Source: a bacterium
Lineage (GTDB): Bacteria > Planctomycetota > JAFGQW01
Length of the DNA stretch: 64,000 bases
Direction: 5' to 3'
NCBI GenBank assembly: GCA_030426805.1
Contig: JAUHXU010000003.1
Span: 1,027,220-1,091,219, forward strand
Positions 54,040 through 64,000 of this stretch are shown piece by piece. The notes under the pieces were generated by a model, which had not been told where the DNA came from, searched no databases, and worked only from the letters and a program-made list of their open reading frames with translations. Every line of letters starts with the position of its first letter. The first letter of the stretch is position 1. The position numbers and the translations under genes are program-made.

Positions 54040-54683
54040 CTCGAATCCCCTGTCCGTTTCTCCTGATCACCCGGCACCGGTTCTCCGGCCGGTCCGCGCG
54101 ACGTCCCAGGTGTGTTGTCTTGCCCGGCCAACTCTCCGATGGCCTGGCGGCGCACCCATCACCCCGTGTCGGTGCGCAAACCCGTTTTGATCTGCTCCGG
54201 GAAGCTACACGACATCGCACCCCGGAGCCAAGGCAAAACCGCGAGATCCTCGAAAATCGCATCGCCTTCATCGGACCTTCAAGCCGCGTCGCGGGAGGCC
54301 GAATTCCACGCACGGCTCGGCTCGATTCGAGAATGTCGTGAAGATCCCGTAGGCGCGAGAAGACGTGATCGCCAGGCTCGATCCGAGACGGTCGTCGTAA
54401 GTGCTTGTCGATACGCGGATAGTCCCCGCGGCATCGGCCGGTTCGGGTGCTCGCTGGGACGTCGGGTCGGCCCGGACGCCCGAAAACGCCTGATTTCACC
54501 GCTTGCTCGCACCGCGGGATTCCCTTAGATTCTCGTGTCCTAGGCAATTCGACTCGATTGACGTCGCGCAAAAACGGGTGCGTGCAACCAGGGGGCATCC
54601 GCGGGGTGCTCGACATCATTCAGGCGCGCGTTCCCAACGAACGGGAACGTGCCTACGCATCGGGGAATGGAGAGACCAGGACC

Positions 54684-57470
54684 ATGTTCCGACTTCGCGC
54701 ATCACGGTTCGTAACGACCGTCGCGTGTGTCGCACTGTTCGCGAGTGCAGTGCCGGCCACCGACTGGTATGTGCGTCCGGACGGCAGCAACGCCAACGCG
54801 GGCACCGGCGCCACCGCGGCGCTCGCGTTCGCGACGATTCAACACGCCGTCGACACGGCCGTCTCCGGCGACACGATTCGCGTCGCCGCCGGCACCTACG
54901 TCGAGCAAGTCGTCATCCGCGACAAGAGCCTCGAGCTGTTCGGCGGCGTCGCGATGCCTGGCATTCCGGCCAGCACGACGACGATCCAAATGCCGGCGTC
55001 GCGTGCGATCGATGCGTCGAAGAAGCTCTCGAACACGATCGCCCCGATCGTGAACAGCTCGATCCAGGCGGACCCGTGCGTGTGGGTCGAAGACACGACG
55101 CCGTCCACGGCCGACGTCGAAGTCTACTTCTCGCGCTTCACGGTGGACGGCGCTTCGCTCGGCGACACCGCCGGCGGCCCCGCGTTCGTCGGCATCGTCT
55201 ACCGCGCGGCGCGCGGCGAGATCGTCTACTGCAACGTGAACAACTTCCAGGACCCGACGCCGAACGGCTTCCAGCGCGGCGCGGGCATCTGGATCGACGG
55301 CGATTCGTCCTTCGAGGGCGCGACGAACGTGCGCGTCTACCGCACGTCGACGTGCAACATCCAGAAGGGCCACCTGATCGCGAAGGTCGGCACCGCGAAC
55401 TTCGTCAACTGCACCTGCCGCGGCTACGGCCCGGTCGGCTTCATCTCGCAGAACGGCGTGCAGTTCTCGAGCAACGTCCGCGGCGGCCTGCACGGCTGCA
55501 ACATCTTCGGCTTCGAGTTCACCGGCGGGACGTTCTCGTCGTCCGGCGTGCTCGTCTTCGCGCCGACGCGTCGCCTCCGCATGACCGGCAACCACATCTC
55601 CGGGTGTGACGTCGGCATGAACATCGACGACGGCAGCGACTTCGGTCCGACGTCGCCGATCGGCACGAACTACGTCGAGGCGAACACGATCGAGGACTGC
55701 GCGTTCGTGAACCTCTTCACCGAGGCGCAGGGCACCGGCCTCTACCGCGGCAACCGCCTGCTCAACGCGCGGATCGCGGGTTCGCTCGCCGAGGACTTCG
55801 GTCCGTCGGTGGGCCCGAACACGTGGCGCCACAACATCTACGACGACATCGTCGTGCCGGGTCCCCGGCTCGTCGGCGGGTCGGCGAGCGTCAGCGACAG
55901 CGACGCGCGCGTCCAGCCGGCATCGTTCCAGGCGCCGGCGTCGATCGACACCGCGCAGAGCGATCCCACCGGCGTCGTCGCCCGCGACTTCAACGGCGAC
56001 GGCTACGTGGACGTCGCGTTCGTGAACAACACCGGCGACAACGTCCGCGTGTGGTACGGCAACGGCGCGGGCGCGTTCCCGCTCGGCCAGACCGTGTCGC
56101 TGCCCGGCGGCTCGGCGCCGACCGCGATCGCGACCGGCAACTTGAACGGCGACACCGCGCCCGACCTCGCGGTCGCGTGTGCGAACGGAACGGTCGTCAC
56201 CGTGCTGAACAACCTCGGCGGGGTCGCGTTCCCGGCCGCGGCGACCGCCGCGACGATCCTCGGCACCGGCATCTCGGCGAGCGAGTCGCCGTCGGCGATC
56301 GCCGTCGGTGACGTGGACGGTGCGAACCGCGACGACATCCTCGTGTCGCTCGCCGGCACCGCGCCGGCCGTCCTCGGCGGTGCGCGCCTGCTGACGAACA
56401 CGGGCACGGGCACGTCGTTCGTCGGGAGCGCGCCGTTCGGGCTGATCGGCTCGAGCCGCGGTTGCGCGCTCGGCGACATCGACCTCGACGGAGATCTCGA
56501 CGCGGTCGTGACCGACGCCGGGCTCAACGCGCCGACGTCGCTGTTGAACGTGCACACGTATCGCAACATCGCCGGCCTGTTCATCGCCGGCCCGGTGCTC
56601 ACCGGCGGCCTCGGCCCGCGCGGTGTGACGATCGACAACCTGGACGGCCTGGACGCGCCGGAGATCATCTGCGCGAACTTCGGCAACCCGCCGCTCGTCA
56701 CGGGCAGCGTCTCGGTGTTCCCGAACACGAGCACGCCGGCGGGCTTCTCGATCGCGCCGGCCGTGACGACGAACACCGACCAGGGCGCGCACGCGGTCGT
56801 CGCGGGCGACTTCCTCGGCGATCGCAACGACGGCCCGGTGCACCGCGACGTCGCGGTGATCAACCTGGTCGGCGGCACGATCACGCTGCTGCAGGACTGG
56901 CGCTCGCACAAGATCTCGTCGGGCTCGGGGGCGTTCGGACGCACCGCGACGATCACCGCCCCGTCGGCCCCGGCCGGCATCGCGCTCGCGGACCTGAACC
57001 GCGACGTGGCGGCCGACCTGGTCGTGTGTGACACGACGACCGACACGGTGGACTGGTATCGCGGGGACAACCACGCGGTGCTCGCCTACTTCGGCCAGGG
57101 CTGCCGTGGCGCCAACGGCGTTGCGCCGATCGTGCTGACCGAAGGTGGCCACGCGCTGCTGTCGAACCCCGACTTCGCGATCGCGATCGACAACGCTCGC
57201 CCGGGCGCGACCGCGTTCCTCGTCGGTTCGCTCGCGCGCGTGAACCCGGTGCCGGAGAACTGCGCGATCCTCGTGACGCTGATCAACGTGTTCTTCCCGA
57301 CGACTACGAACGGTTCCGGCTTCGCGAAGCTGCCGATTCCGTTGCCGGCCGGCCCGCCGGTGATCGTCGGGTTCAACATCTACTGGCAGTGGGGCGTGTT
57401 CGATCCGGGCGCTGAGTTCGCCGGAACGGCCGCGATCACGAACGCGATGCGGACCGTCCTCGGCCGCTGA
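54684..57470 (+). CDS. Secreted 928-aa protein: right-handed beta-helix (DUF1565/pectate-lyase-like) + FG-GAP/VCBS repeats
   Basis: ATG at 54684 with GGAGAG upstream. Signal FVTTVACVALFASAVPA. WYVRPDGSNANAGTG...TIQHAVD...GDTIRVAAGTY is present. There are repeated DFNGDGYVDV/GDIDLDGDLD motifs. Confidence 0.85.
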   Translation: MFRLRASRFVTTVACVALFASAVPATDWYVRPDGSNANAGTGATAALAFATIQHAVDTAVSGDTIRVAAGTYVEQVVIRDKSLELFGGVAMPGIPASTTTIQMPASRAIDASKKLSNTIAPIVNSSIQADPCVWVEDTTPSTADVEVYFSRFTVDGASLGDTAGGPAFVGIVYRAARGEIVYCNVNNFQDPTPNGFQRGAGIWIDGDSSFEGATNVRVYRTSTCNIQKGHLIAKVGTANFVNCTCRGYGPVGFISQNGVQFSSNVRGGLHGCNIFGFEFTGGTFSSSGVLVFAPTRRLRMTGNHISGCDVGMNIDDGSDFGPTSPIGTNYVEANTIEDCAFVNLFTEAQGTGLYRGNRLLNARIAGSLAEDFGPSVGPNTWRHNIYDDIVVPGPRLVGGSASVSDSDARVQPASFQAPASIDTAQSDPTGVVARDFNGDGYVDVAFVNNTGDNVRVWYGNGAGAFPLGQTVSLPGGSAPTAIATGNLNGDTAPDLAVACANGTVVTVLNNLGGVAFPAAATAATILGTGISASESPSAIAVGDVDGANRDDILVSLAGTAPAVLGGARLLTNTGTGTSFVGSAPFGLIGSSRGCALGDIDLDGDLDAVVTDAGLNAPTSLLNVHTYRNIAGLFIAGPVLTGGLGPRGVTIDNLDGLDAPEIICANFGNPPLVTGSVSVFPNTSTPAGFSIAPAVTTNTDQGAHAVVAGDFLGDRNDGPVHRDVAVINLVGGTITLLQDWRSHKISSGSGAFGRTATITAPSAPAGIALADLNRDVAADLVVCDTTTDTVDWYRGDNHAVLAYFGQGCRGANGVAPIVLTEGGHALLSNPDFAIAIDNARPGATAFLVGSLARVNPVPENCAILVTLINVFFPTTTNGSGFAKLPIPLPAGPPVIVGFNIYWQWGVFDPGAEFAGTAAITNAMRTVLGR

Positions 57471-57686
57471 TTCGGCCAACCCCGCATTCCGGAGCTGCGC
57501 GCCCGGTTCACCTCGGTGGACCGGGCGCGTCGCGTTGATGGGCGAATCGAGACGATCCCGAAACGCGACGCGCGGGGAGGCTTTGCGCCGGCCGCATGGT
57601 TCGGCTACGCTTCAAGTGCCATTGGAGAGTGCAATCGACTTGCGTCACGGGTGGGTGTCGCGAGAAGTTCGGAGGACATTGAGCAG

Positions 57687-59414
57687 ATGATTCGGGGACA
57701 CTTCGGCCGCCTCGTGTGCGGTTTCGTCACGTTGTGGATCGCGGCGGGATCCGTCGCCGCACAGGGCAACCAGCCGTTCTATCAAGTCAGCGGCGCATCG
57801 CCGGACGCGAAGATGGGCGTGAGCGTTGCGCGCGTGCCCGACATCGACGGCGATGGCAACGACGAGTTCGTCGCGGGTAGCCACCGCTTCGACGGCCCGA
57901 CCGGCGCGGACGTCGGTCGCGTGTCGGTCTACAGCGGCAAGACCGGACGCGTGCTCTGGCACTACCAGGGCGGGCAGGCCGGTGGGCTCCTCGGCCACAA
58001 CGTGTGGGGGATCGCCTCGACGGCGACGACCACCGGCACCGGCTGGATCGTCGCAGGCGCGTATCGCTACTCCTCGTTGATGACCGGCCCCGGTCGAAAC
58101 GGTCGCGTCGAGGTGCTCGACCACAACGGCAACTTCGTGTGGGGCCGGAACGGCACCAACCCGAGCGACGAGCTGAGCTACTCGCTCGGTTCGCTCGACT
58201 TGAACGGCGACGGTAACGACGACGTGATCGCCGGTGCGTGGAACTCCTCGTCGGGCACGTTCCTCGGTGGCGAGGTCTTCATCTTCGACGGCACCAACGG
58301 CAGCACGCTGCGCGCGCACCTTCCTGCGAACGCGCGTGAGCGCCTCGGCTCCGGCCTCGCCGGCGTCGGCAACATCGACGGCGACACGGTGCCGGACTAC
58401 GTGATCGGCGCGCTCGACGCACCGGGCGGCACGACCGCCGGCCCGGGCGCGGTCTACGTGATGGCCGGCGCGAGTGGCGCGACCCTCGCGACGCTGGTCG
58501 GGATGCCGGGCTCGGTGGACTTTGGCCACCACGTCACCGGCCTCGATGACCTGAACAACGACGGCTTCAACGAGTTCCTCGTCGGCGATCCGACGCACAA
58601 CAACGGACCGAACGTCGCGGCCGGCATGGTCTACGTCTACTCCGGTCAGGCGCCGTATCCGATCCTCACGACGATTCCCGGCCCGCTGGCCGGCGTGCGC
58701 TTCGGTCGGTTCGCGGCGCGCGTGCCGGACACGAACGGGGATACCGTCGACGAGTTCGCCGTCGGTGCGCCGCTCTACTCGGGGCTGAACCAGAACCTCG
58801 GCGCGGTCTTCCTCTACGACGGCGCGACGCAGACCCTGATCCGCCGGTACGACGGCCCGAGCGCGAACAGCCAGTTCGGCTTCGCGGTGTGCGGCCTCAA
58901 CGACGTCAACGACGACAACCGCGGCGACCTCGCGGTGGGCGCGTTCCAGTATCAGCTCCAGAACGTGCCGGGACCGTTCACGTTCTCGCGCGGCCGCACG
59001 CAGGTGTTCGTCGAGGAGACGCTGACCGCTTCGGCGTCCACGCTGTCGGTCTCGAACCCGCAGCCGATCAACTTCGCGATCGACGCCGGCACCCGACACG
59101 CCGGCCGCACGTATCAGCTGCTGTTCACCGCGAACGGCTTCCTGCCCGGGTTCCAGATCCCGGCGATCAACATGCACCTGCCGCTCAACCCGGGGCAGAT
59201 CTTCATCCTGTCGTTCAACATCTCGAACTCGCCGGTCTTCCAGAACGCGTTCGCGGTGACAAACGCGCAGGGTAAGGGACAAGCCACACTGAACGTGCCG
59301 CCGGGACTCCTCGCCGGCCAAGGCAACTCCGGCATCAACTTCCGCTTCGCCTACTACATGGTCGTCCGGCAGGACCACAGCTCGAACATGTGGCGCGTAG
59401 GCCTCGTGCCGTAG
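57687..59414 (+). CDS. Secreted FG-GAP (integrin-alpha-like) repeat protein
   Basis: ATG at 57687. Signal LVCGFVTLWIAAGSVAAQ. There are repeated DIDGDGNDEFVAG / DLNGDGNDDVIAG / DLNNDGFNEFLVG / DVNDDNRGDLAVG motifs. Confidence 0.85.
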   Translation: MIRGHFGRLVCGFVTLWIAAGSVAAQGNQPFYQVSGASPDAKMGVSVARVPDIDGDGNDEFVAGSHRFDGPTGADVGRVSVYSGKTGRVLWHYQGGQAGGLLGHNVWGIASTATTTGTGWIVAGAYRYSSLMTGPGRNGRVEVLDHNGNFVWGRNGTNPSDELSYSLGSLDLNGDGNDDVIAGAWNSSSGTFLGGEVFIFDGTNGSTLRAHLPANARERLGSGLAGVGNIDGDTVPDYVIGALDAPGGTTAGPGAVYVMAGASGATLATLVGMPGSVDFGHHVTGLDDLNNDGFNEFLVGDPTHNNGPNVAAGMVYVYSGQAPYPILTTIPGPLAGVRFGRFAARVPDTNGDTVDEFAVGAPLYSGLNQNLGAVFLYDGATQTLIRRYDGPSANSQFGFAVCGLNDVNDDNRGDLAVGAFQYQLQNVPGPFTFSRGRTQVFVEETLTASASTLSVSNPQPINFAIDAGTRHAGRTYQLLFTANGFLPGFQIPAINMHLPLNPGQIFILSFNISNSPVFQNAFAVTNAQGKGQATLNVPPGLLAGQGNSGINFRFAYYMVVRQDHSSNMWRVGLVP

Positions 59415-59430: not shown

Positions 59431-59820
59431 CTACAGCAATTCGGCGAGCCGCAGCGGCGTGATGATCGTCACGACGCCGACGCGTGTGTCGAAGAGGTGC
59501 CCGAAGTCGCGCCGATCGCCGGTGACGAAGTAGTCGCTCCCGGAGCGGATCGCTGCGCACAGAAGCGGGACGTCCTTATCGTCGAGCTCCACGGGCAGTT
59601 GGAAGATCGACGATGGGACGATCTCGACCGCGCTGAGCAGTTCGTCGAAAGCGCTCACCCAGGCGGCCCGTTTGAGGGAGAGATTTCGCCGCGCCTCGGC
59701 GCGGGCAACGTCGGACGTGAGCAGCGTCGCTTGTTCAGCTGTTTGGGCGATGAGGCGTGCGAACGCGCTTCCCGGCTGACTCGCGGAGAATAGCACGTTC
59801 GCGTCGAGGAAGACGCGCAT
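59431..59820 (-). CDS. vapC: PIN-domain toxin
   Basis: MRVFLDANVLFSA (first acidic residue) and YFVTGDRRDF. It starts 3 nt after the antitoxin stop. Confidence 0.85.
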   Translation of the reverse strand: MRVFLDANVLFSASQPGSAFARLIAQTAEQATLLTSDVARAEARRNLSLKRAAWVSAFDELLSAVEIVPSSIFQLPVELDDKDVPLLCAAIRSGSDYFVTGDRRDFGHLFDTRVGVVTIITPLRLAELL

Positions 59821-59823
59821 GCG

Positions 59824-60054
59824 TCAGTCCCGTTCGCGCAGGAGTCGCTCGATCGCCGGGGCGTCGCTCGCGAACTCCTCGATTCTCTCCTCCGTGTAGA
59901 TCTCCACCGGAATGCTCACGGTGGGTCGAAGCAGGATCCCGTCAGGGGTCGTCTCCGCGACGAGCACCTCGCCCGCTTCCAGGCCTAGCGCCCGGCGTAG
60001 CTTCGCGGGGAGCGTGATCACGCCCCTGGCGTTCATCGTGATGTGTTCCTTCAT
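59824..60054 (-). CDS. vapB: AbrB/SpoVT-family antitoxin
   Basis: The NARGVITLPAKLRRALGLEAGEVLV swapped-hairpin motif is present. An alternative ATG lies at 60036. Confidence 0.8.
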   Translation of the reverse strand: MKEHITMNARGVITLPAKLRRALGLEAGEVLVAETTPDGILLRPTVSIPVEIYTEERIEEFASDAPAIERLLRERD

Positions 60055-60194: not shown

Positions 60195-62639
60195 TCAGCC
60201 GATCTGGCTGAGGATCGTGCGGTCGGTGATCTTGGTGTCGGCGGCGAGGAGGAAGGCCTTGCTGAGGATCGTCGCCAGGGTGGCGTCTCCCTCGAAGGGG
60301 AGGAAGACGCGCTTGGAGGCGGCGGTCCCGGCGGCGGCGCCTCGGCCGGGGACGATGCACAGATACTGGTCGTTCGGCTCCATCAGGATGTTGGCGCTGC
60401 CGAGGTGGATCTTGTAGGTGCGCCGGTCGCCGCGGACGACGAGGAAGCGTTCGGTCAGCGTGCAGCGGTCGGCGATCTTGAGCGCCGGCACGAGCCCCTC
60501 GAGCACGGTGCGGCGCGTCTCGGCAGTGGCGGACAGCTCACCGAACGAGTAGGACGTCCAGTAGTCGCGGTAGCGTCCTTCGGGGCCGCCGTCTTCCCAC
60601 GCCGGGTCGTTGCCGACGCTCGCGACGCCGACGAACAGGTCGACGTCGCGGAGCACTTCGGTGAGCACGCGCGGCGGGACGTCGGCGATCGGCACCGGCT
60701 CGGCGCCGCGCTCCCCGCGGTGCCAGTGCGTGTCGGGGGCGGCGTCCGGGTCGGCGTCGCGGTAGAAGCGCACCTGGTCGGTGGCCACGTAGAGGTAGAT
60801 GCCGGACTCGCTGACGTCGGTCTCGTAGTCGTCGTTCGTCGGGTCGGTCCAGAACTCGGCGTGCAGACCGGCGCTCGGGATCGCGAGCGTCGCGGTGGAG
60901 TCCGGCGAATCCCACGCGCCGCGGAGCGCGTAGTGCCAGCCGCGCGCATCGCACAGCGCCTTGAACTGGTGCTGCTTCAGGATGTGCGACGCGAAGCGGT
61001 TCGAGTAGACGCGCGTCGTGCGCTCGGCATCGGTGAGCAGGTAGACCTCGCGGTGGGCCTGCTTGAACGGCTGGCGCACGCGGTGCTCGACGAGCCATGC
61101 GCGCCACGCGGCGACCTCGTCCGCGTCGTCGTCCATCGGGTGCCACAGCTCGACCTCGGCCTCGGGCCAGTCGATCGGGATCCCGTCGCGGTCGACGATG
61201 CGGCCGTCGTGCCACGCGCCGATCGCCTCGCGGTCGTCGCCGCGGAAGCGCCAGATCAGTCGGCGCGTGATCGTGCCGACGAGCGGGTGGTCCACGTAGC
61301 GTTCGCGCCACGTCGCGACCGGCCAGCGGCGCCGCGTGAGGAGCGTGGCTTCGATGCGGTGCGCCTGCGCGGTGACGAGCTTCTGGATGTCCTTCACGTC
61401 GGCGCGCAGCGACTTCAACGCGGCGGCGTGGTCGCGCTTGACCGCGGCGGGCACGGTCTTCTGGAGCTTCCCCGCGGCGGTGCGCCACGCGAGGTCGGTC
61501 GACGCGTTGCCGGTCACCGTCACGACGGCGACGTGTTCGCCGAGCGTGCGTTCGAGCCGGCCGACCGCCGCGAAGCCGTATTCGGGGACGCCGATCTCCT
61601 CGAGGTCGTCGCGCGACAGACCCGCAGCGTCCGCCGCCGCCGTGAGCGCTTTCTCGATGCTGTTCCTCGCGGTGCCGACCTTCACGCGCACGGCGAGCAC
61701 GCTGAGTTGCGCGACGCCCGAGAGCCCCTGCCGACCGAGCGCGAGGATCGCCGCGTTGCCGACCCGCACCGCGCGCGCACCGATCCCCGGGAGCTTCTTG
61801 AACGACGTGAGCGCCAGCGCGCCGAGTGCGCGGGCGACGTCGCGGTCTTCGGGCAGGTCGGCGCAGCACCACGCGAGCCCCTTCAGGACGTTGGCGTTCC
61901 GATCCAGCATCTGGCGCGACTCGTCCGCGGGGACGAGCGAGAACCAGCGGAGCACGCACTCGCGGAACCCGGGCGCCGCGCCGCGAAGCGTCGTCGCGGT
62001 GGCGCTCCACTTCGGCGTCGGTTTGCCCGCCTTCGCCCGCGCGACGTGATCGAGCAGGGCGGCCCATGCGGCCTTGGCGTCGGCGTCGAGGGCCGCGATG
62101 TCGGCGATCGCCGCGTCGGCCCACGCTTCGCCGGACTCGATTCGAGCGTCGGGGCCGTCGACGAGAGCCGTGATCCGCGCACGGAACTCGTCGATGCGCA
62201 CGTTGTCGTTGCAGTGCTGGCGGAGCGCTTGCCACGCCTTGCGTAGCGCCGAATCCCGCGTTGCCGCACCGTCGTTCTCGGCACGCGTGAGCAGCGTTGC
62301 GATCGCGGGGTATGCCTCGTCGCCGAATTCGGTGGTCGCAAACGCGAGGACCAGCGATTCCGTTTGGCGTGCGTCGAGCGGGGGGCCGTGTTCGACCAAC
62401 AGCGCGATCAGCCCATTGAGCAGCCTGCTCTCCAGCGCGCGGCCCTCCTCGAAGCATGCCGCGGCCCGCGGGAGCAGCGCATTCAGAAAGCGCAGTTTCG
62501 CTGCGGCGGGCTGGTTGCGGAGGCTCTGCCAGAGCGGGAGGTCGGACGATCGCGGCAATCGGCGGCCCCGGTCGCGGAAGGCCCAGTCGATCGCCCCGTC
62601 GATCAGCGCGTTCTCGGCCGCGAACGCGTCGTCGGTCAC
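60195..62639 (-). CDS. DUF4132 domain protein (MolR/YehI-like), 814 aa
   Basis: YVDHPLVGTITRRLIWRF, FKQAHREVYLLTDAE, and the C-terminal motif TYKIHLGSANILMEPNDQYLCIVP...LPFEGD...ILSKAFLLA. The GTG start lies 3 nt after the upstream stop. Confidence 0.85.
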   Translation of the reverse strand: MTDDAFAAENALIDGAIDWAFRDRGRRLPRSSDLPLWQSLRNQPAAAKLRFLNALLPRAAACFEEGRALESRLLNGLIALLVEHGPPLDARQTESLVLAFATTEFGDEAYPAIATLLTRAENDGAATRDSALRKAWQALRQHCNDNVRIDEFRARITALVDGPDARIESGEAWADAAIADIAALDADAKAAWAALLDHVARAKAGKPTPKWSATATTLRGAAPGFRECVLRWFSLVPADESRQMLDRNANVLKGLAWCCADLPEDRDVARALGALALTSFKKLPGIGARAVRVGNAAILALGRQGLSGVAQLSVLAVRVKVGTARNSIEKALTAAADAAGLSRDDLEEIGVPEYGFAAVGRLERTLGEHVAVVTVTGNASTDLAWRTAAGKLQKTVPAAVKRDHAAALKSLRADVKDIQKLVTAQAHRIEATLLTRRRWPVATWRERYVDHPLVGTITRRLIWRFRGDDREAIGAWHDGRIVDRDGIPIDWPEAEVELWHPMDDDADEVAAWRAWLVEHRVRQPFKQAHREVYLLTDAERTTRVYSNRFASHILKQHQFKALCDARGWHYALRGAWDSPDSTATLAIPSAGLHAEFWTDPTNDDYETDVSESGIYLYVATDQVRFYRDADPDAAPDTHWHRGERGAEPVPIADVPPRVLTEVLRDVDLFVGVASVGNDPAWEDGGPEGRYRDYWTSYSFGELSATAETRRTVLEGLVPALKIADRCTLTERFLVVRGDRRTYKIHLGSANILMEPNDQYLCIVPGRGAAAGTAASKRVFLPFEGDATLATILSKAFLLAADTKITDRTILSQIG

Positions 62640-62642
62640 CGC

Positions 62643-63008
62643 TTATCCCCCGACGAGCGGGACGAGCTTCAGGAACGACACGCGCGTGGACGGCGCGACG
62701 ACGATCTCGTCGGCGAGGTCGTCCACCTGGCGGTCGTCGACGAGGACGAGGAAGCGGTTGTCGCGAAACGCGTCGAGCGCGACCGCGAACTGCTCCTGCC
62801 AGTCGATCTGCTTCTTCGTCGTGTCGGCGGGCTCCACGAGCCGGAAGCGCGGCGTCACCGACCGCGCGTTGTGGTCCTTGACCTCCTGGAACACGCGACT
62901 GCGGATCAGCTCCTCGACCGTGATGCGCTCGGTCAGGAAGTCGAGCGTCAGCGCGTCGGTCTCCGCGCCGCCCGTCGTGCGGTCGGTCACCTGCAGTTGA
63001 TGGCTCAT
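62643..63008 (-). CDS. 121-aa hypothetical protein ending in Gly-Gly (beta-grasp/ubiquitin-like candidate)
   Basis: The ATG at 63008 has AAGGGA upstream. The C-terminus is DDRQVDDLADEIVVAPSTRVSFLKLVPLVGG followed directly by TAA, which resembles ThiS/MoaD-type tails. Confidence 0.65.
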   Translation of the reverse strand: MSHQLQVTDRTTGGAETDALTLDFLTERITVEELIRSRVFQEVKDHNARSVTPRFRLVEPADTTKKQIDWQEQFAVALDAFRDNRFLVLVDDRQVDDLADEIVVAPSTRVSFLKLVPLVGG

Positions 63009-63135
63009 CGGACGATTCCCTTCGCCGCCGATGCTCGCCGCTCGATCGCGTCTGCGCAAGGGGTCACACGCCAGACGCGCGCCAGGGCCGCGCCGGGGGT
63101 GGCCTCGACGCCGGATTCGCGTCATGATTCACGCC

Positions 63136-64000
63136 ATGAGCACCGCCCGCCCGAGAGTCCTGGTCACCGCCGCGCTGCCGTATGCGAACGGGCCGATCCA
63201 CTTCGGCCACATCGCCGGCAACAACCTGCCGGCCGACGTCTTCACGCGGTTTCAGCGGCTCAAGGGCGCCGACGTCCTGTCGATCTGCGGGACCGACGAG
63301 CACGGCGTCGCGATCACGATCGCGGCGAAGCGCGAGGGCACGACGCCCCAGGCGATCGTGGACCGCTACCACGGCGTCATCGCGCGGATCCTCGAGCGGA
63401 TGGACATCCGCTACGACAACTTCTCGCGCACGTCGCGCCCGATCAACCACGAGATGGCGCAGCGCTTCTTCACCGACCTGCTGGACGGCGGCTTCATCGA
63501 GGAGAAGGTCGAGAAGCAGCTCTACAGCGTGGCCGACGGGATGTTCCTCGCCGATCGCTACGTGCTCGGCACGTGCCCGAAGTGCGGCCACGAGAACGCG
63601 CGCGGCGACGAGTGCCCGAAGTGCGGCGCGTGGCTCGACCCGCTCACGCTGATCGAGCCGCGCTCGGCGCTGAGCGGCGACCGCCCCGAGGTGCGCGAGA
63701 CGAAGAACTGGTATCTGCGGCTGCAGGACTTCCAGCCGAAGCTCGAGGCGTGGATCGGCGCGAAGACCGGGTGGAAGGAGAACGTCCTGCGCTTCGTGCA
63801 GGCGATGTTCAAGGAGGGGCTGCGCGAGCGCGCGATCACGCGCGATCTCGAGTGGGGTGTGCAGGTCCCGGTCGACGGCGGCGACGGCAAGGTGCTCTAC
63901 GTCTGGTTCGACGCGCCGATCGGCTACATCTCGGCGTCGATCGAGTGGGCCGAGGCGCAGGGCGCGCCGGAGCGGTGGCGCGACTACTGGCAGTCCGACG
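63136..64000 (+). CDS. metG: Methionine--tRNA ligase (3' end beyond window)
   Basis: My own translation gives MSTARPRVLVTAALPYANGPIHFGHIAGN (HIGH-type motif), GTDEHG, zinc knuckles CPKCGHENARGDECPKCG, and YVWFDAPIGYIS. It is not in the ORF track because no stop falls in the window. An alternative ATG lies at 63124. Confidence 0.95.
   Translation, partial: MSTARPRVLVTAALPYANGPIHFGHIAGNNLPADVFTRFQRLKGADVLSICGTDEHGVAITIAAKREGTTPQAIVDRYHGVIARILERMDIRYDNFSRTSRPINHEMAQRFFTDLLDGGFIEEKVEKQLYSVADGMFLADRYVLGTCPKCGHENARGDECPKCGAWLDPLTLIEPRSALSGDRPEVRETKNWYLRLQDFQPKLEAWIGAKTGWKENVLRFVQAMFKEGLRERAITRDLEWGVQVPVDGGDGKVLYVWFDAPIGYISASIEWAEAQGAPERWRDYWQSD

Follow-up and report, generated by a model that had tools for sequence, protein, structure and literature searches.

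To our knowledge, all characterised bacterial ubiquitin-like systems (ThiS/MoaD, TtuB, SAMPs, Bil and type II CBASS) depend on an E1-type adenylating enzyme. Here we describe a locus in which a protein with a free Gly-Gly terminus and a predicted ubiquitin-like fold is encoded together with a single large partner, on the minus strand of a planctomycete contig (JAUHXU010000003.1, GenBank assembly GCA_030426805.1, positions 1,027,220 to 1,091,219 of the forward strand). This whole stretch of 64,000 nucleotides (nt) is called the window in what follows. The first gene of the pair encodes a protein of 121 amino acids (aa) and is translationally coupled to the gene of an 814-aa protein carrying the DUF4132 and DUF7737 domains. 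We propose that both proteins form a ubiquitin-like module in which the Gly-Gly tail of the small one works with the C-terminal module of the large one, possibly in a covalent manner.

Among the described systems, ThiS, MoaD, CysO, TtuB and the SAMP-type modifiers are likewise small stand-alone beta-grasp proteins with a flexible tail and a free Gly-Gly and, as in the case of MoaD and MoaE, the small gene of the window adjoins that of its presumed binding partner. In contrast to the ThiS/MoaD-type carriers, the small protein exceeds them by about 50 residues, contains a conserved long helix as well as an insert made of a loop and a helix, has no sequence similarity to them (Pfam; hhalign) and is not linked to E1-like (ThiF/MoeB/UbaA) or biosynthetic genes, its partner being a DUF4132-DUF7737 protein without a known fold match. 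The Bil operons, the type II CBASS operons with Cap2/Cap3 and the E1-E2-JAB operons also include a ubiquitin-like beta-grasp protein in a compact bacterial operon, and a stress or conflict role is suggested by context for them and for the present pair alike. However, these operons are defined by E1, E2 and JAB/DUB genes (Iyer et al. 2006, PMC1779556; Gong et al. 2024, PMC11601603), whereas the present operon has two genes only and none of those. No paper linking DUF4132, DUF7737 or DUF5724, a region found in distant relatives of the large protein, to a ubiquitin-like partner was found in the literature. The pairing is new among bacterial ubiquitin-like systems, and would be categorically new only if an activation independent of E1 were shown.

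The small Gly-Gly protein and its linkage to the large gene

The small open reading frame (ORF) was read directly on the minus strand, where it starts with the ATG at 63008 and ends with the TAA at 62645-62643. Its last codons are CTC GTC GGG GGA TAA and the encoded protein ends in ...VSFLKLVPLVGG. The GTG start codon of the 814-aa ORF follows at 62639-62637 and this second ORF ends at 60195. The GGGGGA run formed by the two Gly codons sits 6 nt 5' of the GTG, that is, at Shine-Dalgarno distance. A 160-aa alternative reading of the small gene from an ATG at 63125 had no homologue support and was discarded; every relative begins at the position of Met-63008, which makes 121 aa the correct length.

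A search of 5.8 billion proteins yielded 582 relatives of the small protein with a typical length of 131 aa, compared to which the copy in the window shows a loop deletion of about 10 residues. Gly-Gly is the exact C-terminus in 119 of the 120 best homologues, the one exception being truncated or frameshifted, and the ending KLVPLVGG is common to 92 of them. When 1.84 billion representatives were searched exhaustively with HMMER, 2,239 clusters of small proteins (50% identity) were detected at E<=1e-3, and among the 149 best cluster representatives 140 had the Gly-Gly terminus, the remaining nine being truncated or frameshifted. Pfam, NCBIfam, PADLOC, PHROGs and the sequences of the PDB gave no match to the small protein. 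The small protein represents a large, previously unannotated family.

An AlphaFold2 model of the small protein was built on an alignment of 117 sequences, with a predicted local distance difference test (pLDDT) score of 84.4 and a predicted template modelling (pTM) score of 0.77. The modelled chain consists of two strands, a long conserved helix, an insert made of a disordered loop and a second helix, three further strands and the tail, whose Gly-Gly end was disordered, with low pLDDT. All 50 top matches of this model in the PDB by Foldseek were beta-grasp proteins. The best one was MoaD (6jbz_B, E 1.8e-3, prob 0.98), and others were FAT10, ubiquitin, ISG15, NEDD8, SUMO and the staphylococcal superantigen-like (SSL)/EapH1 domains. 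Sequence kinship with ubiquitin, NEDD8, SUMO1, MoaD or ThiS was not detected by hhalign (probability <1%). The predicted structure makes the assignment to the ubiquitin-like (beta-grasp) fold a coherent one and, judged by this model, the family is new among ubiquitin-like proteins.

The linkage between both genes was analysed from the side of the large protein, for which a profile scan with one genome per species gave 584 relatives. Eighty loci were retrieved, from about ten phyla (Planctomycetota, Verrucomicrobiota, Cyanobacteria, Acidobacteriota, Chloroflexota, Actinomycetota, Gammaproteobacteria, Armatimonadota, Deinococcota and Bacteroidota), and the small gene was sought in them by six-frame searches with a hidden Markov model. 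The small gene adjoins the DUF4132-DUF7737 gene in 67 of the 80 loci, and several of the remainder are cut by contig ends. In five independent genomic contexts, the small gene is followed by the DUF4132-DUF7737 gene within 2-10 nt. Counted over all loci, it lies upstream of the large gene in 65, directly downstream in 6 and farther off in 3, and in most of the 65 the distance from stop to start is -4 to +10 nt.

The Gly codons are also put to use in ribosome binding. In 23 of 63 upstream copies the penultimate one is GGA, which yields GGAGG, compared to 15% in the large genes of the same genomes, and a run of the GGAGG or GGGGG type is present at the Gly codons in 38 of the 63 loci. Nevertheless, the small genes placed downstream of the large gene still encode an LVGG end, and therefore the constraint acts on the protein and not merely on the ribosome-binding site.

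No third conserved gene was revealed by clustering the neighbouring ORFs of about 160 related loci, and no E1, E2 or JAB gene was found near the pair, either in the window or among these related loci. Biosynthetic, rhodanese, cysteine desulfurase or E1-like genes also showed no conserved adjacency to the pair in any phylum. A housekeeping E1 encoded elsewhere may nevertheless exist. The pair is a self-contained, co-translated two-gene cassette, and the recurrence of its Gly-Gly end, short spacing and GGA codon exceeds chance. The preliminary description of this DNA, made from the sequence alone, had pointed out the Gly-Gly-ending ORF, the GTG placed 3 nt after its stop, the Shine-Dalgarno sequence built from the Gly codons and the lack of E1, E2 and JAB genes nearby, all of which agree with the above data. 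It had also likened the tail of the small protein to a beta-grasp fold and named this fold, conservation of the Gly-Gly end in orthologues and recurrent linkage to DUF4132 genes as points to check, and the three were found, the first of them with marginal Foldseek E-values.

These data bear on a first alternative, a non-covalent obligate heterodimer in which the tail plugs a pocket of the large protein, as in MoaD-MoaE and ThiS-ThiG, without any conjugation, the Gly-Gly being kept since the pocket admits nothing but a small and flexible tail. Such a heterodimer would suit the lack of a recognisable activating enzyme, the top Foldseek match to MoaD and the tight translational coupling, from which production of the two proteins at 1:1 follows. 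On the other hand, docking alone does not usually demand a terminus as strict as the exact Gly-Gly seen in more than 2,000 clusters and across ten phyla.

The large gene was present as two or three tandem paralogues at loci L017, L020, L030, L039, L056, L131, L134, L137 and L147, often with a single small gene or none, so one small protein could serve several large ones or the paralogues could be diversifying. A search for fusions of both genes gave a sole candidate, P0321 (969 aa), which is a fusion in appearance only, the large gene being frameshifted there and read on into a small gene that follows it. A phage origin of the pair was also dismissed, as no copies were detected by tblastn in 50,697 GenBank phage genomes or in 2.9 million IMG/VR viral contigs. 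A phage family without assigned function, phrog_20839, nevertheless matched aa 284-568 of the large protein of the window, the DUF4132 region, with E 1e-25; given that no tblastn match was obtained with the whole protein, phage DUF4132 proteins must be quite divergent.

Conserved residues of the large protein and the tail of its partner

The 814-aa protein, which is not the giant that the preliminary description had called it, has 391 close homologues. Its AlphaFold2 model (pLDDT 84.8) shows helical repeats followed by alpha/beta domains, the limits of which are given in Table 1. The first ~170 aa are poorly conserved according to the conservation profile. Whole-model Foldseek searches (PDB, BFVD) detected solely repeat proteins of the HEAT/ARM/TPR type, matching the N-terminal part. 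No PDB relative was found for the C-terminal 330 residues, even with a diverse profile of 49 sequences, and the middle region (aa 569-705) had no Pfam or PDB match.

Conservation is concentrated in the C-terminal module formed by DUF4132, the middle region and DUF7737, in which 23 columns, about 18 of them polar, charged or aromatic, are invariant across the two branches of the family described below. Within DUF4132, the invariant motif QPFKQxxRExYxxTxxE...SxR was found, and the residues Q523, P524, F525, K526, Q527, R530, E531, Y533, E539, S546, R548 and W568 are invariant in both branches. Further invariant positions are R709, G737, the LPFxxD motif and D806, whereas Y742 and H745xGS are nearly invariant, His745 being replaced in only two or three of ~180 tabulated sequences. 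DUF7737 was modelled as a helix, five short strands and helices. Judged from the alignments, the invariant residues of the C-terminal module look like an active site.

This architecture differs from that of the protein to which the partner had been likened in the preliminary description, MolR (YehH)/YehI of Escherichia coli. YehI has in common with the window protein DUF4132, including the region of the QPFxQ..RE motif, but lacks DUF7737 and the middle region, whereas the window protein runs 245 aa past DUF4132. The small neighbour of YehI, YehK, ends in ...NQEIE and is unrelated to the Gly-Gly protein. In addition, the yehF-yehQ cluster contains WGR, MoxR AAA+, DUF5682, VWA and SWIM genes, none of which is present in the window locus, and the window large protein has no WGR domain (Pfam). 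A Bacillus plasmid shows the same yeh-type cluster layout as E. coli. The Gly-Gly partner therefore belongs to the architecture DUF4132 plus middle region plus DUF7737 and not to the MolR/YehI type, and the earlier label does not hold.

A second, distant branch was sampled in plasmids and, by scanning with the C-terminus of the large protein, in metagenomes; in this branch a ~1,200-aa DUF5724 region replaces the short helical N-terminus. The tail of the small partner in this branch is either Gly-Gly (Deinococcus-like and soil members) or a Gly followed by three residues, the last of them aromatic. The latter type is found in Bacteroidota and gut members, with the endings LAGRMW, LSGRLW, LAGSIW, LVGTYW and LAGSTY, and one LTGGYF. 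Loci with such extended tails include L091 (1419-1838), L095 (1562-1987), L093 (1684-2157) and many of L112-L175.

The presence of one residue of DUF7737, Cys761, was found to follow the type of tail. With a Gly-Gly-tailed partner, Cys761 is present in 75 of 78 alignable large proteins (66/66 in the short branch and 9/12 in the long branch); the three exceptions, L102, L104 and L106, have Phe at this position and come from soil metagenomes, with partners ending in …MLAGG. In contrast, Cys761 is present in none of the 26 large proteins whose partner tail carries three additional residues, in which A, N, S or H is found instead, and in 1 of 21 long-branch loci without partner but with room for it on both sides. 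Out of 67 columns with at least 90% conservation in the Gly-Gly class, the extended class has lost just five, of which C761 alone becomes variable. The pattern is suggestive of a constraint kept in one class and relaxed in the other. The preliminary description had raised the possibility that a missing enzyme lies inside the large protein, and the way in which Cys761 tracks the free Gly-Gly tail lends this idea suggestive support.

On these grounds, we rank first, although only tentatively, a reading in which the large protein makes covalent use of the Gly-Gly carboxylate, Cys761 being the acyl acceptor. The tail would insert into the C-terminal module and, in the Gly-Gly-ending branch to which the window belongs, its carboxylate would form a covalent acyl intermediate (a thioester) with Cys761, in an inferred sequence in which the tail is adenylated, bound as the thioester and transferred to a target. 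The large protein would stand in for the missing E1 and E2, the choice of target or ligand would fall to its helical repeats and, in Deinococcus, DNA damage would switch the module on. A more far-reaching version, to which we give only a minor chance, is that the DUF4132-DUF7737 protein is a single-polypeptide enzyme unrelated to E1, E2 and E3, which activates the Gly-Gly end, carries the partner on Cys761 and attaches it to targets chosen by the helical repeats. This would amount to a separately evolved two-gene tagging system, present in at least ten phyla and damage-induced in Deinococcus.

Several observations weigh against a covalent mechanism. The Foldseek support for the fold of the small protein is marginal (E 1.8e-3 to 3e-2, template modelling scores 0.3-0.55), these modest values being due to its insert. 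Searches with Pfam, NCBIfam, PADLOC and PDB profiles revealed neither a motif for adenylation or nucleotide binding nor any signal of an E1, E2, JAB or peptidase, and DUF7737 aligned with six eukaryotic E2s with an hhalign probability of 0.1%. Cys761 is not universal, as the Bacteroidota-type branch has no Cys at this position and the three Gly-Gly-ending members mentioned above have Phe. Moreover, a neighbour-joining tree showed that the change between Gly-Gly and extended tails is essentially one deep event, so the co-variation of Cys761 and Gly-Gly does not provide independent replicates, and its use as an independent statistical proof was downgraded. Finally, the G[RST]x[WYF] form of the extended tails is conserved in its turn, suggesting that the tail serves for docking of a non-covalent kind.

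The Bacteroidota-type branch also favours the non-covalent heterodimer introduced above. This branch keeps the pair with extended tails and without Cys761, and therefore neither the free Gly-Gly nor Cys761 is needed for the ancestral partnership. However, a mere docking role does not easily account for the strict retention of Cys761 only with a free tail, nor for the many invariant charged residues of the large protein, which are typical of catalysis. We thus place the heterodimer second, as a serious contender that appears somewhat less probable than the covalent use of the tail. Covalent use of the tail would mean that ubiquitin-like proteins can be activated by a new chemistry; otherwise, the pair would be a new and informative case of a Gly-Gly tail kept for non-covalent reasons. 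In either case, a widespread family with a predicted ubiquitin fold and a strict free Gly-Gly is tied to a single partner without a recognisable E1, E2 or protease, and this provides the first concrete functional lead for DUF4132, DUF7737 and DUF5724.

An E2 nature of DUF7737 was also considered, prompted by the motif KIHLGSxNILMxPNDQYLCIVP and by the order of helix and strands. The succession helix, short strands, Cys and helices, together with HLGSxN...YLC, is loosely E2-like, but the sequence evidence did not support it. No Pfam match to E2 families (UQ_con, Prok-E2) was obtained in 52 members, and the Cys is missing from one entire branch. The E2 idea is kept only at the level of structure, as a putative resemblance.

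The Deinococcus member and its control by DNA damage

The drA0165-drA0166 genes of Deinococcus radiodurans were identified as the same cassette, and are its only member with experiments. DR_A0165 is a 134-aa protein ending in ...RLTALAGG that aligns with the small-protein family of the window with an hhalign probability of 97% (E 1e-10). DR_A0166 (DRA0166) starts 2 nt after the stop of DR_A0165, has 1,626 aa with DUF5724, DUF4132 and DUF7737, and conserves Cys761. The small-large coupling, the co-orientation and the presence of DUF4132 plus DUF7737 are the same as in the window, whereas DUF5724 replaces the short helical N-terminus of the window large protein and the identity is ~30% over the C-terminal module. 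The earlier statement that DUF4132 has no established function is nearly true, but published expression and deletion data do exist for this pair (PMC8533742, PMC9650054).

According to these works, drA0165-drA0166 belongs to the DdrO/IrrE radiation-desiccation regulon and mitomycin C raises the amount of the DRA0166 protein (PMC8533742), whereas DR_A0165, published as the "small peptide SEP068184", is up after gamma rays and H2O2 (PMC9650054). The DR_A0165 deletion mutant was viable, grew faster at late stages and was more resistant to H2O2, with unchanged expression of DR_A0166, and overexpression of DR_A0165 sensitised the cells (PMC9650054). In pull-down assays, DR_A0165 retained many proteins, among them thioredoxin Trx1, and did so even when tagged at its C-terminus (PMC9650054). 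Binding of partners by a C-terminally tagged protein is a further point in favour of the non-covalent heterodimer. Neither article noted the ubiquitin-like fold or the Gly-Gly tail, and a Deinococcus "small peptide" affecting survival to oxidative stress can now be re-read as a predicted ubiquitin-like protein.

DR_A0165 was also taken in PMC9650054 as Deinococcus-specific and without the radiation/desiccation response motif (RDRM), both of which are contradicted by the present data. In D. radiodurans and D. psychrotolerans, the RDRM palindrome (TTATGCTATTTACATAA) was found ~80 nt 5' of the small gene (L089 554-570 and L096 1734-1750), in line with PMC8533742. Despite this, a DNA-damage operator shared across phyla was not supported, as no recurrent SOS-box or RDRM motif was detected upstream of the cassette, and the window has no recognisable SOS or RDRM operator in 63009..63135. 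A perfect Gram-positive-type LexA box, GAACATGTGTTC, is located 36 nt 5' of the small gene at L042 (Chloroflexota, Ca. Leptofilum), the only case among 116 upstream regions. The damage induction of the Deinococcus cassette has a parallel in E. coli, where molR appears in a list of genes under LexA control (PMC6590174), and in D. deserti radiation induces a SWIM/MoxR operon (PMC4007540).

On chromosome II of D. radiodurans, the cassette has as neighbours (L089 1-506 and 6812-10915) trxC and a YeeE/YedE gene, and modA, thiD and a thiazole synthase gene lie within 5 kb. These neighbours could suggest a sulfur carrier: the Gly-Gly of the small protein would become a thiocarboxylate, like those of ThiS, MoaD, CysO and TtuB, with a persulfide on Cys761, thiolation by the large protein and, possibly, an unlinked MoeB/ThiF-type activator. 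A beta-grasp protein with a free Gly-Gly and MoaD as its best structural match, a conserved Cys that tracks the free tail and the binding of Trx1 by DR_A0165 (PMC9650054) would also fit, as would the historical genetic link that in E. coli ties the use of molybdate to molR, a DUF4132 gene (Lee et al. 1990, as cited in PMC7824862 and PMC8533742). However, the Deinococcus neighbours are not conserved elsewhere, none of the biosynthetic, rhodanese, cysteine desulfurase or E1-like genes is conserved beside the pair in any phylum, and the small protein has no sequence relation to ThiS or MoaD in Pfam or hhalign. In addition, moeA and moeB are not co-regulated with the drA0165 operon in Deinococcus (PMC8533742). 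A role as sulfur carrier therefore seems unlikely.

The induction by DNA damage in Deinococcus (PMC8533742) also invites comparison with toxin-antitoxin or anti-phage pairs, in which the small protein would restrain a toxic large effector that is released upon infection or DNA damage. A small gene placed first, with an overlapping or adjacent start, is the typical order of type II toxin-antitoxin systems; some loci lie beside NACHT, SduA_C or UvrD genes, or on plasmids next to a BrnT toxin, and the window pair abuts a MazE/PIN pair. The tandem paralogues of the large gene in several loci and the variable N-terminus of the large protein would be compatible with such a role too. In contrast, the order of the genes is reversed at some loci, PADLOC has no match for either protein, copies are absent from the phage genomes and viral contigs searched, and the neighbourhoods are mostly of the housekeeping type. 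Moreover, DR_A0165 could be deleted to give viable and more stress-resistant cells with unaltered DR_A0166 expression, the harmful state being its overexpression (PMC9650054), and these effects fit an active cofactor better than an antidote. We consider a toxin-antitoxin or defence role very improbable, more so than that of a sulfur carrier. For the covalent use of the tail that we prefer, and for its alternatives, D. radiodurans, Streptomyces and Gimesia are indicated as tractable hosts.

Features of the window locus and neighbouring genes

The coordinates of the features discussed above are given in Table 1. The promoter of the operon presumably lies in the intergenic region between the small gene and metG.

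Table 1. Coordinates, within the window, of the small-large gene pair and its parts, listed from the 3' end of the large gene.
Feature	Coordinates	Strand	Basis
814-aa partner gene: helical-repeat N-terminus, DUF4132, conserved middle region, DUF7737	60195..62639	-	ORF, Pfam, homologues, AlphaFold2
DUF7737, aa 706-813	60201..60524	-	Pfam E 6e-41; motifs YxxHLGS, Cys761, LPFxxD
Cys761 codon (GCA on plus strand = TGC)	60357..60359	-	Residue tracks the free Gly-Gly tail of the partner
His745 codon (HLGS motif)	60405..60407	-	At least 90% conserved, nearly invariant across the family (diverse alignment)
Alpha/beta middle region, aa 569-705	60525..60935	-	Alignments; invariant E661, R664, D667 (RDxDL)
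DUF4132 (PF13569), aa 390-568	60936..61472	-	Pfam E 1.2e-50
Alpha-helical HEAT/ARM-like repeats, aa 1-350	61590..62639	-	All-helix model; Foldseek matches to repeat proteins
3-nt spacer GCG between small-gene TAA and large-gene GTG (translational coupling)	62640..62642	-	Sequence
Small gene, 121-aa predicted beta-grasp protein with free Gly-Gly	62643..63008	-	ORF and sequence; tail ...KLVPLVGG-TAA
Two terminal Gly codons GGG GGA, doubling as Shine-Dalgarno-like GGGGGA	62646..62651	-	Sequence
Divergent intergenic region, small gene to metG	63009..63135 (127 bp)	.	metG start at 63136, plus strand

The metG gene (methionyl-tRNA synthetase; Pfam tRNA-synt_1g, E 7e-107) occupies 63136-64000 of the plus strand, divergent from the small gene. 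As metG is found next to the DUF4132 cluster of E. coli (yehF-yehI) as well as here, a link between them was considered, but metG is absent near other related loci and was taken as a coincidence. Beyond the toxin-antitoxin genes, two large proteins with FG-GAP/VCBS repeats (1007 and 632 aa) are encoded at 54447-59414 of the plus strand, with no conserved adjacency to the pair at other loci. Directly 3' of the pair, the minus strand encodes a MazE/AbrB-type antitoxin (76 aa, 59824-60054) and a PIN-domain toxin (129 aa, 59431-59820), both assigned by Pfam, which together (59431-60054) constitute a VapBC-like pair.

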